The notes under the pieces: model-generated
Told to the model about the DNA's origin: nothing
Database searches by the model: none
What the model saw: the letters and a program-made list of their open reading frames with translations, nothing else
Source: a virus
Taxonomy: Duplodnaviria > Heunggongvirae > Uroviricota > Caudoviricetes
IMG/VR virus record: IMGVR_UViG_2737471818_000009
DNA: 35,267 bases
Direction: 5' to 3' (one strand)
Position numbers and translations under genes: made by a program
Part shown: piece by piece, positions 4,903-34,211 of the stretch
Numbering within the stretch: the first letter of the stretch is position 1
Layout of the letters: every line of letters begins with the position of its first letter

Positions 4903-6947
4903 TACATCGTCCTTATAAAGGCTGCAATAATGAACTCACCTTCTCCGGTGTAATCCGGTGTCCCGGAAAGTGCGCGGTAAACGCCTGGCAGTGTGTGTTT
5001 CTCTGCACCAGAAAGTCCAATTTTCGGCGACGATAACGCCCCTTCCGCAACACTGAATACTACAGGTGTCAGGGCGGAGCCCGGATAATATTGCCCTCGT
5101 CTGATACTGACCGTTTTATTACTGCCTCTGCCCTGAAGAGCTGCCAGCGTTATGCTTCCTGTATATGGGTCACCATAATCATCATTTGTGGTCCTGCTCA
5201 GAATTTGCGTAATATCATTCTGGTCAATATTTATTTTCCCCCACTCACTCAGTGAAGGACCATGTATGGCATCGTATGTTGCCCGGTACAGTTCACCGTT
5301 CATCCCGTAAAAAACAGCCATCTTCAGCATTACCGGGACAGTAAGGTTATTCCGCATCTCATCGGCAAAAAATAAATCAATCACACCTGTAAACTGTACT
5401 TCCGGTATAATTTCGCAGTCTGCGCTGACCGTATACCGCCCCGGTGTGGCATTTGAGATCCAGTCAAGAAGCACTTCCTTCGACGAAAAGCTGAGAACGT
5501 CACCTTTTGTGAAGATATGCCCGAATCCCAGACTGCCTGCAACTGCAGCCCGTCCCGGCGTTCTGTCATAAATGTCTGACTGGAGCTCATAATTTCCGCC
5601 CGATGCTGAATTTCCACTATTTCCACTGATACCCAGAACGTCACACATCTCTTCGGCTGTGGATTGTGACAGCAGCTGTTTCCCTTTTTCAGAAACAGGA
5701 ACCAGAGAACACTGCCCGTCACCGGTAAAACCGGGAAAACCGCTCCCGTCAGAAGGAAGATTACCTAACGCAGTCAGAACGGGACTTAACGGCTGTTTTC
5801 CGGCCAGCGCGTTCATCATTGTTGTCGCAAAGCTCGGGTCATTACCCAGCGCCTCCGCCAGTTCGTTCAGCGTGTCCAGGGCTTCCGGTGATGAATCAAC
5901 CAGTGCAGCAAGTAGTTTGCGGACAAACGCCGCATTAGCTATTTCATTACCTGCTGCATCATCCGGTGGTGTTGGCGTGGACGGCGTTCCAGTCAGCGCC
6001 GGGCTGTTCAGTGGGGCGCGGGTTTCAATCAGTGCCCGGAGTGTAGCCTCGTTGACTTTAAGGTTTTCCCAGCCAACCAGATAACCATCTCCGGTAGTCC
6101 AGTATCGGTTGTAATAAATATGGCCGTTAATACCGCAGAAAATAATAACTTTAGCTACATATGCCGGATTAGGATTGGTCTGATGTTCCGGCCAGATAAT
6201 TTCAATAGTGCCGCTGAACAGGACTTTAGGAATGATTTTATCTGCACCATAAACGATATAACGACCAGGTGTTGCCGTTTTTACCCACAGTAGAAAATCA
6301 GCCTCCGTTTTAAACTCGATCCTGTCACCACTGGAAAATATTTTCCCGAACCCGAACATGCCCGGAATTGCCAGACGGCCCGCGGTACGATCGTGGGTAC
6401 CGTCCTGCGACTCCATTGTGGCTGCGCTTTTTAGTCCAAGATTATCGCGGGATTCCTGCTGTGCTTCCGCGCCTGCTGCCGCAATTTCTGACAGATGGTT
6501 TGGAGCTTTCAACATTGTTTTCAGTTCCGGATAAATATCCACTTGCCAGCTTTGTGGGGGTACGGTGATTTGCGCAGACCGTGCTATGCCCTGATAAGTA
6601 ATCGTGAAGTTTCTGATCAGTGACTCGCCGGCATGTTTCTGTCTGACAGGTGTTTTTATTACGCCGCATAATGTTCCGCTGGCCTGATGAACCAGGCAAA
6701 TCCAGTCATAGCTGAATGCACAGTCATCAGGGACAACCGCGCTACACACAATATTGTTCGGGCTTAACTGGCCGTAGGTCAGTTCATTCACAGCATATGT
6801 GATTTTTTCTTCCGGAACGGTATTATCTTCGCGCGTTGGTTCCCGCTCCATCAGGGCAAAAATAATAGCGTCAGGGCGTGCAGGCAAATTACTGGCTGTG
6901 CATTCCGCAACCCACTTTTCAAATGCTTTCGTCAACAGTGCGCTCAT
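4902..6947 (-). CDS. Tail fibre protein (second fibre, 681 aa)
   Basis: N-terminus (MSALLTKAFEKWVAECTASNLPARPD) parallels that of the first fibre; Gly/Ser-rich repeats; followed by a Tfa gene. Confidence 0.7.
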   Translation of the reverse strand: MSALLTKAFEKWVAECTASNLPARPDAIIFALMEREPTREDNTVPEEKITYAVNELTYGQLSPNNIVCSAVVPDDCAFSYDWICLVHQASGTLCGVIKTPVRQKHAGESLIRNFTITYQGIARSAQITVPPQSWQVDIYPELKTMLKAPNHLSEIAAAGAEAQQESRDNLGLKSAATMESQDGTHDRTAGRLAIPGMFGFGKIFSSGDRIEFKTEADFLLWVKTATPGRYIVYGADKIIPKVLFSGTIEIIWPEHQTNPNPAYVAKVIIFCGINGHIYYNRYWTTGDGYLVGWENLKVNEATLRALIETRAPLNSPALTGTPSTPTPPDDAAGNEIANAAFVRKLLAALVDSSPEALDTLNELAEALGNDPSFATTMMNALAGKQPLSPVLTALGNLPSDGSGFPGFTGDGQCSLVPVSEKGKQLLSQSTAEEMCDVLGISGNSGNSASGGNYELQSDIYDRTPGRAAVAGSLGFGHIFTKGDVLSFSSKEVLLDWISNATPGRYTVSADCEIIPEVQFTGVIDLFFADEMRNNLTVPVMLKMAVFYGMNGELYRATYDAIHGPSLSEWGKINIDQNDITQILSRTTNDDYGDPYTGSITLAALQGRGSNKTVSIRRGQYYPGSALTPVVFSVAEGALSSPKIGLSGAEKHTLPGVYRALSGTPDYTGEGEFIIAAFIRTM

Positions 6948-7507: not shown

Positions 7508-9208
7508 TTAAACACTCGCCACGTTATACCAGGTGCCATTAATCAGTTTCTGAAGCGGTCGGTAATACACGCCGCCGATGTTATCCGCCGAATTACTTCC
7601 GGTTTCCTGCACATTAATGCCGGATAACCCGTGGCCTGAAGGTGAGCGAAATGTCCAGGATATCTGGTTACCTCCCGGGTTGTAATACATTTCGGAACCG
7701 TACCTTACATCCTGCACTCCCTCTGTTCGCTGCTTATACCTGGCATCAAAGTTTCCGTAATCTGACGGCGTTACCCGACCGGAAGTGTTCATGGCCCTGT
7801 TACTTTGTAACGTCCCGTTCTGAAAACGGAATATATGCTGGCCGTTGGCATAAATATCCAGCAGACCGTCGCCATTCTGCTTTATACCCGTATCGTTATC
7901 CCCGAAAGCAATTGAGTTTCCGCCCAGCGCGTTCTGAACGCCGATACCCAGCGCACCATTCACCTGAGAACCGCCACCAACAGACACTTTATGCGACATG
8001 GATATTTCACCCGTCCGCAAATTAATAGTGAACGGACGCAGGGGGCCAATATCGCCGTTTTCGCCCTGATTTTCCCGGGTGGGAATAAGATGCAGGCACT
8101 CTTCAGAACGACGAAAAATCAGGCCAAAAGCTTCGTTGAAAATCCTCAGTGCATTAACACCACGGATTTTCAGCTCCCCGGTCATGGTGTCGCCGTCGCG
8201 CTCAACAGCGTCTTTTGCTTTATCCATTGCGGCTTTTACTGCCTTTGATGTGGCGGCGCGGTCTTCTGCGTCGCTGTCGGTGGAGTTGCTGTACTGCGCA
8301 AAGCCTTTCTCCTTCAGTGTTGCGTCCGGATGATGGCGGGATTTTTCGTGCTCTGCCAGTGCATTGCTTTGTTCTTCGTCGGGTGTCTCCGGGCGCAGGT
8401 CCTGTGGGCCGTCTCCTGTCATTTTTGCAAGTGGCGCGACAAAGTGTCGGAAGCCGTTACCGTCTGTATAAGACGCATGTTCCTGGCGGGCGCAAAACGT
8501 AAAAACGGTATTCCATTCGCCGGTAACAAATCCCTGCCAGCTTGCATCAATCCAGAGGGTATCCCCGACCGCAGCCGGCAGGCTGTAAGGTTCGCGCAGA
8601 CTGACGCGCAGACCTCCCACATAACCCACGCCGGCGGCAACAGTAGCGGTACCGTCCTGATAGCTGACCTGAAAACCATCCCCCAGAAAAGCGGCTTCAC
8701 CGTAGTGATCAAACGCCAGCAGCCGGCGGGCCTCATCCATTCCTGCAAGGCGTGCAGTGAAATCAATCTGCCAGACATCAGCGCTGACATCGATATGCAT
8801 TGCTGCGGCTGCGCCGTCAAACTCCATGGAAAATGTGCGGATCAGGTTGTTTCCCTGCACGCCGTTCGCTGTTTTAATTTTTTGCTGACGAGGTGTGTGT
8901 GCAATCATGCAGAGCACGCCGCTTTCTTCGTTCAGCAGGCCGATCCAGTTGTATTCGAAGTCGCCGACTGTCGTGTCCAGAATGATGGAAAACGCGGTCG
9001 CGTTCGGGGACAGGAGGCCGTACTGGGTGACCGGCGCACGATACTGAATCATGGATTCATCAGGGAGTATCTCATCGCGGGGGATCTCTGCGGATTCATC
9101 CTGTCCCGGAATATATGCAAAAACAAATGTATCCGGGCGCGCAGGTTTTCCACTGATGATTTGATTTGCGCACCAGTGTTCGTACTGTTCAGTAATAATC
9201 GTGCTCAT
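7508..9208 (-). CDS. Tail fibre protein (first fibre, 566 aa)
   Basis: N-terminus MSTIITEQYEHWCANQIISGKPARPD related to the second fibre; internal SNSTDSDAEDRAATSKAVKAAMD block typical of myovirus tail fibres; ATGA-coupled to the upstream baseplate gene. Confidence 0.75.
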   Translation of the reverse strand: MSTIITEQYEHWCANQIISGKPARPDTFVFAYIPGQDESAEIPRDEILPDESMIQYRAPVTQYGLLSPNATAFSIILDTTVGDFEYNWIGLLNEESGVLCMIAHTPRQQKIKTANGVQGNNLIRTFSMEFDGAAAAMHIDVSADVWQIDFTARLAGMDEARRLLAFDHYGEAAFLGDGFQVSYQDGTATVAAGVGYVGGLRVSLREPYSLPAAVGDTLWIDASWQGFVTGEWNTVFTFCARQEHASYTDGNGFRHFVAPLAKMTGDGPQDLRPETPDEEQSNALAEHEKSRHHPDATLKEKGFAQYSNSTDSDAEDRAATSKAVKAAMDKAKDAVERDGDTMTGELKIRGVNALRIFNEAFGLIFRRSEECLHLIPTRENQGENGDIGPLRPFTINLRTGEISMSHKVSVGGGSQVNGALGIGVQNALGGNSIAFGDNDTGIKQNGDGLLDIYANGQHIFRFQNGTLQSNRAMNTSGRVTPSDYGNFDARYKQRTEGVQDVRYGSEMYYNPGGNQISWTFRSPSGHGLSGINVQETGSNSADNIGGVYYRPLQKLINGTWYNVASV

Positions 9209-26288: not shown

Positions 26289-29053
26289 TTTTTGTTTCCA
26301 CTTGTCAGGCCACCCCGCAGCAGGTCTGCTTTGCGGCGGGCGCGTTCAGTGGTTTCACTGATTCTCTGTGCATGCTCTGCGTCGCGGATGGCGCGCAGCA
26401 TGTCAGAAAGCACGGTAACGGGGGTTTTCATGGTGTTCTGGTCCTGCTGAAGTGTGGATGCCAGACGTGCGGCGGCTTCGGGGTCTGATGCCCCCAGCTG
26501 TTCCAGATAGCTGGCGGCCGGGTTATGGCGGATCTCCGTGCTGCTTACGCCGTGATTACGGCTCAGGCGCTGCCAGAGCTGCGTGATTCGGCTGTCCGGG
26601 CGGGTATCCGGTTTGCGTACAATTTCAAATCCCTGCGGTGCAATGATGCTGCCGTCAACGTACAGACTGCCGCCCCGTAACAGGTGCTGCATCTGCTGTT
26701 CACCAATATGCAGGCCGAGAGATTCAGCAGACTCCCGCCATTCTTTAGCGAGTAATTCGTGGTTATCAGGCAAAGGCCGCTGCTGTTTGCGGCTCTGTGT
26801 CCAGCTTTGCATTTCATCACTGCTGTTTTTTGCCTGTTTGTCACGAAGCGAACGCATCAGCGCCCGGCGTTCGTGCCGTTTCAGTGAGCGCATCCATTCA
26901 TTCACTTCAACGCCGTCAGGAATCTGCGGCCACGGTGCTGGCCGTTCTTCCGGCTGTTCTGTCCCGTTGTTGCCTGTTTCCTGTACACGGGGACAGTTAT
27001 TGCCACGAGTCCAAGGGGCGGCAGGGCCGCCCTGAAGGTCAAAACCATTTTCGCGGGTGCTGTCTTCCGCTTCCGGTTTACGTCTTACCAGCTTCCAGTT
27101 ATCCGGATGCGTGCACACACGGGAGGATTCCCCGATGAGTGGTGACCAGATCCCGTAAATCTGTACACTCTGCTCGCCGTAATCGTTCAGCTCATCTGCG
27201 AGGTCGTAGGCGGTACGAATCAGGTAGTCTTTGCGTGGAACAAGTACGCCGCCCTGTTTCTCTATGTAGGTGGCAAAACATCCGGCATCGGCGGCAGCGA
27301 GTACCGCATCCATTGCGTCATTTTCCAGACGTTGCGGTCCCTGTGGGTTACGTGCCATCTGACAGGCAAGGCGGCGCAGTTCACGCCACACCTGACGGGA
27401 GGGGATGCCAAAGAACTGGAACTGGCGGACCCGGTGAAGGCGCGCCCAGCCGATGGCGCGTTCCACGCTTTCTGCCATCGTCTTTCCTGATTCGTCGTCG
27501 ATGCGCGGTTTGCCTGTTTTCGGGTCAATGCCATCCACGGCGCGGCTGTCCAGGTTCTTTCCGATGTAGGTGGCGATGTAGCTGGTCGGCGTACCTTTCG
27601 AACCGTCGACGTACTCTGCCTTAAAGCGCGGAGTTATGTCATTGCCCAGCTCGTGGCGGTCTTCGCGAATGGCAATATCACGGGTGATGTCCACGATGCT
27701 GTCGATTTCTTCAGGATGTGCAAAGACCATCATGTGCCAGTGCACGGTGCCGTCATGGTGAGGCTCCACCGTGCGAATGCCATACCAGCGCAGGCCGTCG
27801 CGGTTCAGTTTTTTGCGGACCGCCTTAAAAAACGTGTTAACCAGGTAATCGCTGGAATCGCGCATGGTGGCCCCGTTCCATTTGGGATTCGGATTACCGT
27901 TCTCTGTTGTGGCGTGGTATTTTGACGGGCAGGTGACAGTCAGAAACACCGCTCTGTCGCCACGGGCTTCGGCCAGAAGTTCCAGCCCCTTCATGGTGGC
28001 CATCATTTCTGCCTTACGGTGAACCGGGTTACTTACTCCCGCGTAATACACTGTCTCGAGATCAATCGTGAACCCGTCTTCGTTTTCCAGCATGAAACTT
28101 TTCAGGTAATCGCGTGTTTTCTCGCGCTGTGCGCGAAACTCGCTTAACGCGTCCTGGCTCAGATAAGGCGATGTTTTTCTGGAAACCAGACAGGCGGCGC
28201 GGAGTTGTTCTTCTCTCCACTCGCAACGTAACAGCCACAGTTTGCGTTTCCACCAGTCCGCACAGGTCAGGCGAAGGATTGCGCCCGGCAGCAGTTCCGT
28301 ATCCGGTTCGCTCTTGTTCAGGGCTTCGTAATGTGGCGGCATGATGTGCAGGCGTAATGCGATACGAGCCAGCATCCGGTAAGCCTTCAACATTACATCC
28401 ATGGTCAGCTCGCCATCTCTGGCACCAAAGCCATCGCAGAGTGTTTCGAAGGTGCTGCTGAACATCGCCGCGGTCATGGTGGCCAGCGTCTGTATCTGGT
28501 GCTTGTTGAGCTGCGGCAGGTAAAGCAAATCGTCCAGGCGTTCGCGCCCGGCAAGGGAGCGATAACCCGGTGTCAGCCAGCGATGATCGGTGCGGTCCAG
28601 ACGTTCGAATATTTTGCGCAGGGTCCCACGCGCATAGCGTTCTGCCTGCCTGGCGTTTTTTCCTTTCTGACGATCGGCTTCCTGTTTTTTGCGCAGGAAG
28701 GAGAGGTGGCGGCTCAGTGGTTCACGCAGATAAACAGGTAGTGCCTTTAGTGTGGCAAAGGCACGGGCTACTGGGTCTTGTTCTGTTGCCCGGCGCTTAC
28801 TGATGATGCTCTGTGCCAGCTTTTCACGCTGTCCGGCTTCCTCAAGGGATGCCATGAGTTTTTTACCCATGGCGGATTGTGCGAAAAAGGCTTCTTCCTT
28901 CGCTTCCTGTTCTTCCCGTGCCCTTTTGTCTGCCTCAAGGTAGTAACGGATGGCGCGTTGCAGGTCGGTTTCAGTTTCCTGCCTGCGCTCCGTAAATCTG
29001 GCCGGATCAATGGCTGGCCGTGGTTCATTCCAGCTCCATGCAAACTCGCTCAT
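26228..29053 (-). CDS. A: Replication initiation protein A (HUH rolling-circle endonuclease, P2/186 gpA family)
   Basis: 941 aa from ATG 29051..29053 (ATGA overlap with the upstream ORF; alternative start 29080); HUH motif TVHWHMMVF and paired-tyrosine motif YIATY. Confidence 0.85.
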   Translation of the reverse strand: MSEFAWSWNEPRPAIDPARFTERRQETETDLQRAIRYYLEADKRAREEQEAKEEAFFAQSAMGKKLMASLEEAGQREKLAQSIISKRRATEQDPVARAFATLKALPVYLREPLSRHLSFLRKKQEADRQKGKNARQAERYARGTLRKIFERLDRTDHRWLTPGYRSLAGRERLDDLLYLPQLNKHQIQTLATMTAAMFSSTFETLCDGFGARDGELTMDVMLKAYRMLARIALRLHIMPPHYEALNKSEPDTELLPGAILRLTCADWWKRKLWLLRCEWREEQLRAACLVSRKTSPYLSQDALSEFRAQREKTRDYLKSFMLENEDGFTIDLETVYYAGVSNPVHRKAEMMATMKGLELLAEARGDRAVFLTVTCPSKYHATTENGNPNPKWNGATMRDSSDYLVNTFFKAVRKKLNRDGLRWYGIRTVEPHHDGTVHWHMMVFAHPEEIDSIVDITRDIAIREDRHELGNDITPRFKAEYVDGSKGTPTSYIATYIGKNLDSRAVDGIDPKTGKPRIDDESGKTMAESVERAIGWARLHRVRQFQFFGIPSRQVWRELRRLACQMARNPQGPQRLENDAMDAVLAAADAGCFATYIEKQGGVLVPRKDYLIRTAYDLADELNDYGEQSVQIYGIWSPLIGESSRVCTHPDNWKLVRRKPEAEDSTRENGFDLQGGPAAPWTRGNNCPRVQETGNNGTEQPEERPAPWPQIPDGVEVNEWMRSLKRHERRALMRSLRDKQAKNSSDEMQSWTQSRKQQRPLPDNHELLAKEWRESAESLGLHIGEQQMQHLLRGGSLYVDGSIIAPQGFEIVRKPDTRPDSRITQLWQRLSRNHGVSSTEIRHNPAASYLEQLGASDPEAAARLASTLQQDQNTMKTPVTVLSDMLRAIRDAEHAQRISETTERARRKADLLRGGLTSGNKKQTETGFTNPVNEQKTRRDI

Positions 29054-29439
29054 GGCTGGTATCCCGTCACGCGCTGCCACTCCTGCGAGAAGATGGCGGA
29101 AAGGCGGTTAAATTCAGCGGTGTATTCACTCAGCGAGGCACACCCGCCAGCAGTGCGATGCGCCAGCATTGCCGCGAATACGGAGGCCGGGGAGTCGTAA
29201 TACGCCAGCAGTGATTCGCCGTGTGGTGTCAGGCAGTGCAACGCCAGCCCGTGTGGTGTGAAGTCCACGCGGTAGCAGTCGTCTACTGTGAAATAAAGGG
29301 TGTCCGCATTCTCCGGTTTTGTAGTGCGTGCTCTGTTGTCACGACCACGGATGTAAAGATCAAATAATCCCTGAAGAACGGGAGCCAGACGGGTGTCCTG
29401 TGTGCGCACCCATCTTGTGAAGTCATGAGCGTCAATCAT
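29050..29439 (-). CDS. Hypothetical early protein, 129 aa
   Basis: ATG 29437..29439; stop overlaps the A start; no recognisable motif. Confidence 0.4.
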   Translation of the reverse strand: MIDAHDFTRWVRTQDTRLAPVLQGLFDLYIRGRDNRARTTKPENADTLYFTVDDCYRVDFTPHGLALHCLTPHGESLLAYYDSPASVFAAMLAHRTAGGCASLSEYTAEFNRLSAIFSQEWQRVTGYQP

Positions 29440-29511
29440 GCTGCAATTCTCTTTACTACAGATGTGCGAAGGCCTCCCGCCGCAAGGTGCAGGAAAGGCC
29501 CGGAACAGGAA

Positions 29512-29742
29512 TTAATGGAGTTTGTTTTGCTGCTGGATGAGCTGCTGAAGCTCGCGCAGATCATCCGCCAGATAGCTGAAAACAGCGGATGAATAGAGGT
29601 TTGAAAGTTCGCAGCTACGCTCATGCAGCATATTGATGTGCATGATTTTAGCGACGCGGAATGCGCGGGAAAGTCTGCGGTTGATTTCAGTCTGGATGTG
29701 ACGACGCTCCGCGATAGCGCGGTGCTGTTTGCGGTTTGCCAT
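29512..29742 (-). CDS. Hypothetical early protein, 76 aa, basic
   Basis: ATG 29740..29742; first ORF downstream of a 370-bp structured noncoding region. Confidence 0.35.
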   Translation of the reverse strand: MANRKQHRAIAERRHIQTEINRRLSRAFRVAKIMHINMLHERSCELSNLYSSAVFSYLADDLRELQQLIQQQNKLH

Positions 29743-29921
29743 GGTGTGGCCTCGTGTATAGTAAGTTTTGAAAACTCACCATCCAGAGGTGGAAAACTCG
29801 GGGTGGTGAGACGTACAGGGTTTCCACAACCGGCTATACACGAACCCGGCCCGACCGAAGTCGGCCCCATACGCCCCACCATAATTCTGACGCGAAAAAG
29901 ACGTGGCGATACGGTACGCAC

Positions 29922-29942
29922 AAAAAAACCGCTGGCGCGGTT
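29922..29942 (-). terminator. Rho-independent terminator candidate in the early region
   Basis: plus-strand aaaaaaa then accgc tggc gcggt; on the minus strand the hairpin is followed by a run of T. Confidence 0.35.
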
Positions 29943-30109
29943 GTGCGCGTGTATAGTCAGCGGGGTGGAAATCCCGGCACCCGTTTTATGAGGTGCAGCG
30001 GAAATGTAACCTGACTGATTGCGGCATGGCAAGCGGTTTTTTTGTGAGAACGGCATACTAAAAAATCCTGATGCTGCTCCGGCCAGCGGTTTCCACTGGC
30101 CGGGTTTAA

Positions 30110-30940
30110 TTACTTCACCGGAACAAACGGAACAGCGGTATTACTGGTCATGTATTGCGGCAGCGTGCCGTTCCATTTGTTGATAGCTTCCAGCTCCATA
30201 ACGCCGGGGTTCTGGCGCAGAGCTTCACCGCGCAAACGAATGGCGTCGGCTTCAGCCTGGGCTTTTGTGCGAATGGCATCAGCCTGTCCGGCTGCTTCTG
30301 CGCGTAGCATGTTGGCTTCTGCTTCGCGCTGCTTGACTTCCTGTTCGCGTTGCAGAGTTTTCTGGTTTGCCGTGACTTTGGCATTAATGCTGTCGATAAC
30401 GGTTGGTGGGTATTCCGGTTTACCGACATAAGAGAGGCTCATTACCTGAATGCCGATAGGTGTCATTTCTGCCTGAATGTCTTTAAGTGCTGAATCCAGC
30501 AGTTCAGACTTGCCGCCGTCGATAAATTTATCGGTGGTCATTTTGCTGGCCAGTCGGTTGAGTGCGTCGGCGATCTTCTGGCGCAGGTCAGTGTCGGTAA
30601 TGTCATCCACGCCTTTGCGGTAGGTCTGAAACACTGTAGTAACTTTGGATGGATCAACCTTGTAGGCCACACCGATGTGATAGCCGATGGTTGTGCCGTC
30701 ACTCATCTGAAAGCTGAACGGCTCATCGTAGGTCTTCATTTGTTTGAAGGTTGGGAAGATGTAAACCTCTGTATTCCAGCCTGTCCAGTAGCGGCCAACG
30801 CCAACTACTTCGCCGACGCCTTTGTCGTCGCCCAGCTTGTTGACTTTGATGCCCACATTACCTGGCTCAACGCGATCGCAACCAACCAGCAGGATGGCGG
30901 CAAAAAGCGGGAGAATCTGAAAGAGTTTGAATTTCTTCAT
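30110..30940 (-). CDS. SPFH/band-7 (stomatin/prohibitin-like) lipoprotein
   Basis: 276 aa; signal peptide with lipobox LLVGC; SPFH-like core; C-terminal Ala/Glu/Gln-rich coiled-coil (QREQEVKQREAEANMLRAEAAGQADAIRTKAQAEADAIRLR). Confidence 0.75.
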   Translation of the reverse strand: MKKFKLFQILPLFAAILLVGCDRVEPGNVGIKVNKLGDDKGVGEVVGVGRYWTGWNTEVYIFPTFKQMKTYDEPFSFQMSDGTTIGYHIGVAYKVDPSKVTTVFQTYRKGVDDITDTDLRQKIADALNRLASKMTTDKFIDGGKSELLDSALKDIQAEMTPIGIQVMSLSYVGKPEYPPTVIDSINAKVTANQKTLQREQEVKQREAEANMLRAEAAGQADAIRTKAQAEADAIRLRGEALRQNPGVMELEAINKWNGTLPQYMTSNTAVPFVPVK

Positions 30941-33814: not shown

Positions 33815-33908
33815 GTGATAATCTCCCTGTTTGGGGTATAGGTGAGATATTTACCCCATAGTTCAACTCATTGTTTGCATAATGCACTACATATTTGGAG
33901 AATGCAAT
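33815..33908. promoter_or_regulatory. Divergent Pe/Pc-type immunity switch region between cox and C
   Basis: 94-bp intergenic region between divergent genes; inverted repeat TGGGGTA (N14) TACCCCA; GGAG RBS for C. Confidence 0.5.
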
Positions 33909-34211
33909 ATGATTTTGGAGATTGGTGAAAAACTAAAACTAATGCGTGAAAGTGAGCGCATTACAAGTCGCAATGAGGCTGCGGAGTTAATAGGTATTCC
34001 GCATAACGCGCTATGGCGTTATGAGACTGGCGAATCCATACCCAAAGGGGATGTAATGATGAAAATCTTAAATTGTCCGCGGTTCGAAAAATATGCCTTG
34101 TGGTTTATGACTGGAAAAATTGCGCCTGAATCCGGGCAGATAGCTCCGGCTCTCGCACACTATGGGCAAGAGCCAACGGATTTACCCCCATCCGAAAGGA
34201 AAATTGGTTAA
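33909..34211 (+). CDS. C: Immunity repressor C (P2 C family)
   Basis: 100 aa from ATG 33909; C-terminal GDVMMKILNCPRFEKYALWFMTGKIAPESGQIAPALAHYGQ closely matches P2 C as recalled; the track start at 33882 is probably over-extended. Confidence 0.85.
   Translation: MILEIGEKLKLMRESERITSRNEAAELIGIPHNALWRYETGESIPKGDVMMKILNCPRFEKYALWFMTGKIAPESGQIAPALAHYGQEPTDLPPSERKIG

Follow-up and report, generated by a model that had tools for sequence, protein, structure and literature searches.

What occupies the 367 bp between two annotated genes in IMG/VR virus record IMGVR_UViG_2737471818_000009, and on which strand does it act? The window, meaning the whole stretch of 35,267 nucleotides that was analysed, holds this gap at positions 29743-30109, between the gene for an SPFH protein (30110-30940, minus strand) and an open reading frame (ORF) for a 76-residue protein (29512-29742, minus strand). 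A preliminary description had reported repeats and hairpins there and had proposed that the gap might hold a gene for a small RNA, an array of protein-binding sites or a promoter internal to the operon. As an observation this was confirmed as a whole, since the sequence features stand at the positions given. The island is very probably a complete c4/CI-type antisense-RNA immunity cassette, carried on the minus strand of a P88-like (P2-family) Escherichia coli prophage and working by the mechanism set out below. The earlier interpretation was correct in part: small RNAs were found and an internal promoter was predicted, but the protein array was not upheld. It had also overlooked the minus strand, the antisense/target system, the overlap with the Shine-Dalgarno sequence of the 76-residue ORF and the ORF that runs through the island. 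The features of the island fit the minus strand only, which is the coding strand of both flanking genes.

The whole window was scanned with Rfam models at their gathering thresholds. Two matches were returned, both in the island and both on the minus strand, so that the proposed small RNA gene became two small-RNA elements. The first (29922..29996) is a leader RNA of the isrK / P4 seqA / P1 a1b1 type (RF01394, 63.5 bits against a gathering threshold of 50). The second (29799..29886) is a c4/CI-type antisense RNA, hereafter C4 (RF01695, 77.3 bits against 45), which covers model positions 1-87, the full length. The leader comprises a 5' hairpin, a second hairpin showing box a1, a linker with box b1 and an intrinsic terminator (29922..29942, minus strand; AACCGCGCCAGCGGUU followed by U7). 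This terminator was found by a terminator scan and in the Rfam isrK alignment, occupies the position of P4 t1 and is the terminator-like hairpin of the preliminary description. Mature C4 was placed at approximately 29880..29802 (about 79 nt) by alignment to the annotated 77-nt c4 of P1. The predicted fold (−44.1 kcal/mol, z −3.4), which is the same by minimum energy and by centroid, has a long closing stem and two internal hairpins; a 12-nt loop and an 8-nt joint on the 3' side stay single-stranded. The GC hairpin previously noticed near 29852-29871 is the first of these internal hairpins.

The repeats were then read as RNA. The 9-mer CGTGTATAG has exactly three copies in the 35-kb window, at 29753 (plus), 29948 (plus) and 29834-29842 (minus), against 0.12 expected by chance; three copies were reached in 0/100 shuffles. 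The 8-mer GGTGGAAA is present twice, at 29788 and 29964, as had been reported, and its 7-mer core GTGGAAA also occurs inverted at 29821-29827, a partner that had been overlooked. On the minus strand the direct copies of the 9-mer read CUAUACACG and the two copies of the 8-mer read UUUCCACC. They are complementary to two exposed C4 boxes, and the direct repeats were therefore assigned as C4 targets. Recognition box b' (UCGUGUAUAG, 29834..29843, minus strand) lies in the 12-nt loop of the second C4 hairpin, and recognition box a' (GUGGAAA, 29821..29827, minus strand) in the single-stranded 3' joint. Upstream, in the leader, target a1 (RNA UUUCCAC, 29965..29971, minus strand) complements the joint and target b1 (RNA CUAUACACG, 29948..29956, minus strand) complements CGUGUAUAG of the loop. 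Downstream, target a2 (UUUCCAC, 29789..29795, minus strand) lies 6 nt past the predicted 3' end of C4, and P1 a2 is placed alike. Target b2 (CUAUACACGA, 29752..29761, minus strand) shares its last 2 nt with the first 2 nt of the Shine-Dalgarno sequence GAGG (29753..29750), after which the AUG of the 76-residue gene follows at 29742..29740. Relative to C4, the 9-10-nt and 7-nt complements stand at −70/−85 on the leader side and +40/+6 on the gene side. The cognate loop/b2 duplex was calculated at −21.1 kcal/mol, non-cognate P88 pairings at about −10 kcal/mol and shuffled targets at a mean of −8.3 kcal/mol.

Covariance analysis across relatives, proposed in the preliminary description, was carried out both with and without an alignment, and the boxes and both target sets were found to change together. 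A pattern scan of viral contigs gave at least 120 loci, from which 88 non-redundant C4 cassettes were retained for statistics; these hold 48 distinct loop sequences and 22 distinct joint (tail) sequences. Without alignment, a complement of at least 8 nt to the cognate loop was present upstream in 72% and downstream in 81% of the 88 loci (0.1% and 0.1% for non-cognate loops). A complement of at least 7 nt to the cognate joint was present in 98% on either side (2.9% upstream and 1.4% downstream for non-cognate joints). The alignment-based test used 32 cassettes. Pairing of a1b1 with a'b' was retained in 95.8% of cells, 15/16 pairs had changed on both sides and 0/500 shuffles matched this; the covariation score was 0.88, where shuffles gave 0.21 and slid controls no more than 0.18. 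For a2b2 the paired fraction was 72%, lowered by slippage of the register in the more divergent rows of the alignment but still above every control. Twelve cassettes differ little from that of the window. In these, promoter, stems, terminator, Shine-Dalgarno sequence and start codon are invariant; substitutions concentrate in the six boxes, which change in concert. P88 itself has a different loop, with b1 and b2 to match. To judge from this pattern of exchange, the boxes are the specificity determinants, as they are between the heteroimmune phages P1 and P7. No box sequence common to P88-like phages and P4-like satellites was found among the matches listed, which form a small sample.

A third covarying helix was found in the same 32 cassettes. 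The strand GAUGGUGAG (29775..29783, minus strand) can pair with CUCACCACC (29802-29810), the 3' strand of the C4 closing stem; this helix would place a2 in its loop and is mutually exclusive with the C4 fold. Paired cells amounted to 90%, 7/9 pairs had changed on both sides and 0/500 shuffles reached the observed value. In the minimum-energy fold of the 267-nt read-through transcript, a1 pairs with a' and b1 with b' in cis. With this cis fold and the third helix taken together, alternative folds are likely to be part of the switch.

The internal promoter that had been suggested was recovered at the level of prediction. A sigma-70 promoter was predicted at 30003..30032 (minus strand), with −35 TTGCCA (30032..30027) and −10 TACATT (30008..30003). 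The arrangement TTGCCA-N18-TACATT is suitably spaced from the first base of the leader, ends 7 nt upstream of it and gives a predicted start at approximately 29996. The site lies inside the read-through ORF described below. It is kept in relatives, being invariant in 12 close ones, in which sequence upstream of approximately 30046 is swapped for other modules. For control by the SOS response, no LexA-box-like site was found near the cassette, and window-wide counts were at chance level.

The first gene behind the cassette was compared across loci. An ATG stands at a fixed distance past b2 in 31/32 aligned cassettes. The gene that it opens is of the anti-repressor type in some loci (Rha, Bro-N, ORF6N or KilA-N domain). 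In others it belongs to the Derepression family (epsilon-type), is a P4 kil-like small ORF of 63-65 aa or a small ORF of 77-81 aa with no family match, or, in one group, encodes a Tad2-like protein. The cassette of the window falls in the Derepression class. Its 76-residue protein (29512..29742, minus strand) matches Pfam PF25738 Derepression at 29.5 bits, marginally above the 27-bit cut-off, phrog_3688 at 153 bits and P4 epsilon with 29% identity over 66 aa (pairwise E 1e-8). These similarities make it a distant homologue of epsilon, the protein of P4 for derepression of the helper. Among deposited phages it was found only in P88-like phages. It was also tried as a homologue of P1 Icd; no alignment was obtained. 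Downstream of it are orf129 (129 aa, 29050-29439, minus strand) and a gene for a 950-aa P2 gpA-type replication protein.

The preliminary description had stated that the island is without a convincing ORF. The 367-bp gap does lie between annotated genes, but a 206-codon ORF (29436..30056, minus strand), taken from the ORF list, crosses all of it, including leader, C4 and targets, and is analogous to P4 eta. It begins at the ATG at 30056, with an AGGA Shine-Dalgarno sequence (30066-30069) 9 nt upstream, and both signals are ahead of the internal promoter. Its phase is that of AUG-GUG-GGG, which is conserved at the 5' end of C4. It runs over the 76-residue gene in another frame, and at 29436 its stop codon shares an ATGA with the start codon of orf129. 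Relatives have this ATGA junction with three different downstream genes. Of the 88 loci, which belong to a few related groups, 84% keep the AUG-GUG-GGG phase open through the cassette; the other two phases are open in 9% and 2%. Openness over the epsilon gene was considered as evidence of selection and set aside as weak, and a test of stop avoidance in the hypervariable boxes was used for that reason. Among the 48 loops, stops occur in 1/48 in the ORF phase and in 18/48 and 11/48 in the other phases; the lone loop with a stop in the ORF phase belongs to a locus that has no through-ORF. Stops in the 22 joints number 0 in the ORF phase and 0 and 9 in the other two.

Residues 13-114 of the 206-residue translation match phrog_6928, phrog_995 and phrog_821, which PHROG names "transcriptional regulator/repressor". 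Against Pfam PF10554 Phage_ASH the translation scored 24 bits, under the 26-bit cut-off, and beyond this sub-threshold hit no match to Bro-N was found. Pairwise comparison with the P4 eta translation gave no significant similarity (E 0.4). The matched residues span the leader-C4-target stretch, and these protein families were therefore taken to be largely conceptual translations of the RNA cassette; phrog_6928 includes the old "cI protein" reading of P4. The names "Ash" and "transcriptional regulator" probably reflect an RNA element read as protein.

The proposed mechanism is drawn by homology from P1, P4 and Gifsy-1. The internal promoter would make the leader, and most transcripts would end at the leader terminator. 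Read-through transcripts would be processed, with RNase P acting at the 5' end, to stable C4 of about 79 nt. Binding of C4 to a2/b2 would block the ribosome-binding site, and hence the translation, of the epsilon-like gene; the untranslated RNA would be exposed to Rho, and polarity would silence orf129 and gpA. Binding to a1/b1 would reinforce the stop at the leader terminator. Briani et al. are said to have reported in 2000 that antisense pairing strengthens termination at P4 t1. Free leader would titrate C4, and titration of this kind would explain the trans-activation observed in Gifsy-1. In a lysogen, the anti-repressor-like protein and the replication genes would be held off. Transcripts from an upstream early promoter would carry the start of the 206-codon ORF, and the open phase suggests that ribosomes would cross all four targets on them, as in P4 eta. 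With ribosomes crossing the targets, lytic transcripts of this kind would escape C4 and couple translation into orf129 and gpA. The function of the cassette is most likely that of an RNA lock on anti-repressor-like and replication genes, bypassed by translated upstream transcripts.

The geometry of phage P1 is equal to that of the window within a few nt. The immI operon of P1/P7 runs P51 - a1 b1 - c4 - a2 b2 - icd - ant. The curated P1 record lists a1 (7 nt), b1 (8 nt), c4 (77 nt), a2, b2 and icd, spaced as in the window, with a 7-nt "a" box and an 8-10-nt "b" box. As in the window, a2 follows a few nt past the 3' end of c4, GAGG shares its first two bases with b2, and 9-10 nt later comes the start codon. 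The C4 model scored 68.8 bits in P1 and 77.3 bits in the window. The P1 leader is matched by c4-a1b1 (RF03163, 51 bits), with isrK below threshold at the same place, whereas the leader of the window is matched by isrK only. The P1 promoter carries a C1 operator, for which no counterpart was identified in the window, and the first P1 gene, icd, is unrelated to that for the 76-residue protein. A stop codon lies in the through phase inside the c4 loop of P1, so that P1 is without an eta-like ORF.

Satellite P4 gave the same Rfam pair in the same order as the window, isrK at 8692..8615 and then C4 at 8507..8420, with epsilon downstream. From these two matches it follows that the isrK model recognises the P4 PLE leader with seqA, and the C4 model the CI RNA; the literature likewise records that relatives of CI and seqA are picked up by the Rfam profiles for C4 and isrK, and summarises CI, seqA and eta (PMC10111431). 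The P4 order is PLE - seqA - t1 - CI RNA/seqB - seqC - kil/eta - epsilon - alpha. Both P4 and the window have a terminator-bearing leader, a two-box antisense RNA with targets on either side, a long ORF that begins ahead of the internal promoter and crosses the cassette in the same phase, and an epsilon-family gene and replication genes downstream. As summarised from Forti et al. 1999 in PMC10111431, P4 has a constitutive promoter inside eta, full-length Eta is made only from the upstream promoter, and Eta translation prevents immunity-dependent termination. ORF translation and RNA function coexist in P4 (PMC10111431). Several differences were recorded. The window is a full P2-type phage, with Cox, integrase, helix-turn-helix (HTH) repressor and gpA replicase, whereas P4 is a satellite. 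The leader-to-C4 spacer is 35 nt in the window and 107 nt in P4. In the window the gene gated first is the epsilon-like gene itself; in P4 it is kil. The through-ORF of the window is read in a different frame from the first gene and stops at the ATG of the next, whereas P4 eta is in frame with kil. The box sequences of P4 differ from those of the window, and P4 orf151 is unrelated to orf129, which had been tried as its counterpart and showed no similarity.

The Gifsy-1 locus (isrK - orf45/STnc1160 - anrP) is collinear with the window in promoter, terminator-bearing leader and C4-type RNA, and its b2 abuts the Shine-Dalgarno sequence of the anti-repressor gene anrP as b2 does here. Gifsy-1 differs in being lambdoid, in having a shorter C4 loop and in gating a larger protein, AnrP, which turns on the antiterminator AntQ. 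According to Hershko-Shalev et al. (PMC4825925), the isrK terminator is read through and STnc1160, a stable RNA of about 80 nt, is processed from the product. The same work states that short IsrK acts in trans on the long transcript, that the locus matters for prophage induction and that IsrK resembles P4 seqA. The published model treats the C4 region of Gifsy-1 as orf45, not as an antisense repressor. An Stx2a phage (L003) has the same leader-C4 tandem, ahead of a Rha-family gene. Approximately 1 kb past the end of the gated Rha-family gene (L003 2054-2170), this phage also has a transposase ORF of the IS type and an ALIL pseudoknot, which is a frameshift element of transposases (120.9 bits).

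Alternatives were weighed against the antisense immunity cassette. A possible but rather doubtful one is a positive switch of the Gifsy-1 type, in which read-through RNA is silent through cis pairing of a1b1 with a'b' and the short leader opens it in trans; the leader would then turn on the anti-repressor-like gene, and C4 would have no repressor role of its own. The collinear layout speaks for it, as does the minimum-energy fold of the 267-nt read-through RNA, in which both of these cis pairings form and which matches the silent "structure A" shown experimentally in Gifsy-1, where short IsrK activates orf45-anrP translation (PMC4825925). A purely cis model does not need a2 and b2, however, and these covary with C4 and sit on the Shine-Dalgarno sequence; P1 represses through a2/b2. 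The positive switch and the antisense cassette are compatible, because titration of C4 by the leader yields activation. That the repeats are instead DNA operators for a phage protein (C or Cox), with the island merely a regulated internal promoter, is very improbable. The 8-9-mer repeats are close to the promoter-like site, but they stand 40-250 bp downstream of the promoter and within RNA structures. Their sequence is not kept among phages of 90-95% identity, and only the inverted-versus-direct complementarity persists, variation that fits RNA pairing and not a protein site. The protein-binding array of the preliminary description was ruled out on the same ground, since relatives preserve the RNA complementarity of the repeats while the box sequences vary.

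It is also highly unlikely that the region simply codes for a 206-aa Ash-family "transcriptional regulator" with the RNA-family matches as by-products. Although the ORF is open in most relatives, matches PHROG "transcriptional regulator/repressor" families and comes near Pfam Phage_ASH, those families cover exactly residues 13-114, the leader-C4-target stretch, and P4 is represented in phrog_6928 by its former "cI protein", a reading of what is now known to be CI RNA. Pairwise, the translation shows no similarity to its counterpart in P4 (E 0.4), while scores of 60-77 bits are reached with the RNA models, and the variation obeys base-pairing rules; in P4, moreover, a translated ORF and a functional RNA coexist (PMC10111431). 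An inactive remnant carried along with the prophage would agree with a cassette for which RefSeq annotates nothing, and which is known from sequence alone. This is highly unlikely, given that every part (promoter, terminator, C4 stems, the two boxes and their four targets) is intact and matches the others, that a 451-bp query is 100% identical in at least 10 complete E. coli genomes with related copies in 1333/5426, and that the specificity boxes were exchanged in concert very recently (P88 versus the window).

The antisense immunity cassette has points of its own to answer. Its parts, their complementarity, their covariation and the open phase were computed directly, and the statements about function are carried over to a cassette seen here as sequence. 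Rfam c4-a1b1 (RF03163) gave no match at E up to 1 in 29650-30200, and the leader element is caught by the isrK model instead. The predicted promoter matches the consensus at only 9/12 positions. The epsilon assignment is marginal, and action of the 76-residue protein on the phage's own C repressor is a candidate role only. The loci behind the open-phase figure belong to a few related groups, and openness over the epsilon gene is unremarkable (P 0.15-0.66 per sequence, synonymous resampling). The through-ORF and the first gene are in different frames, whereas P4 eta and kil share one. As to whether C4 would act by a translation block (P1 mode) or by termination (P4 mode), the sequence allows either. 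All of these weigh against the antisense immunity cassette as proposed.

The hairpin reported at 30080-30105 (minus strand) was confirmed by folding (−23.2 kcal/mol, z −4.7) and lies directly 3' of the SPFH stop codon. It is GC-rich, with 11 bp, and a U6 run follows 13 nt beyond; at that distance the hairpin is not a canonical terminator. The stem is kept in relatives that carry SPFH, and the loop (GUGGAAACC in the window) varies by single bases. The hairpin belongs to the SPFH cargo module, outside the cassette, and may be a weak terminator or an RNA-stability element. A role as a cis decoy was considered, in protection of upstream transcripts, because GUGGAAACC equals the C4 a' box. This was ruled out: P88 has the loop GUGAAAACC with the same C4 box, and locus L095 has the loop GUGCAAACC with a different box. 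Counted over the whole window, GTGGAAA has 19 copies on both strands against 5.7 expected (sd 2.4; 0/100 shuffles reached 19). Only 4/19 of these are in or beside the cassette, and the others lie elsewhere in the window.

Upstream within the window are a Cox homologue, an HTH_3 repressor (33882-34211) that adjoins it and an integrase. The region is 95% identical to phage P88 (P2-like, Xuanwuvirus), which is carried by E. coli K88 and was recovered following mitomycin C treatment (PMC5285337). The P88 RefSeq record annotates the flanking proteins and one opposite-strand hypothetical protein here, and the RNAs are not annotated. That protein, SF19_gp13 (6104-6292 of the P88 record, plus strand; 62 aa), lies opposite the C4 and leader RNAs and is very likely a spurious gene call. 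Immediately downstream of gpA, the P88 record also lists a plasmid segregation protein of the ParM type (1510-2469) and a partition protein (1194-1505), which are unusual for an integrating P2-like phage. The 451-bp query comprised positions 29700-30150; strain STEC316 is one of those with the identical cassette. Among complete E. coli genomes, the cassette or a relative was matched in about a quarter (1333/5426). The RefSeq E. coli records among the matches listed carry no RNA annotation in the matched stretch; the annotation there, where any exists, is a probably spurious opposite-strand protein, an "Ash family" protein or a "transcriptional repressor" protein. One contig (L060) has two C4 cassettes 2.6 kb apart (7265 and 9895) that differ in loop and joint boxes. 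In two IMG/VR contigs (L014 and L097), the first ORF past the cassette is an 85-aa Tad2-like protein (Thoeris anti-defence 2; 27.7 bits against a 25-bit cut-off), an assignment that would place an anti-defence gene behind a c4-type RNA lock in this group.

The principle of such a lock is already established in P1, P4 and Gifsy-1, and the window adds an unannotated instance of it. Of moderate interest are its setting in a P2-type phage, a through-ORF that is out of frame, and how widely the boxes vary in concert. Once recognised, the cassette explains how prophages of this P2-like group could regulate replication and a gene of anti-repressor type. We suggest, tentatively, that P88-like P2-family phages may keep their own epsilon-type anti-repressor and gpA genes behind a c4/CI RNA lock. 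If so, the P4 module of immunity plus epsilon would be common to P4 and the helper lineage, or acquired from the latter, and an eta-like ORF, stop-free even in hypervariable boxes, would be a family-wide bypass of RNA immunity for transcripts from upstream promoters. The two boxes would then form a combinatorial RNA "immunity barcode" that sets heteroimmunity among co-resident helpers, satellites and lambdoid prophages, and heteroimmunity classes would be predictable directly from two short sequences. With three covarying pairings and an ORF running through an RNA gene, the locus would offer a compact natural system for the study of translation that overrides antisense control.

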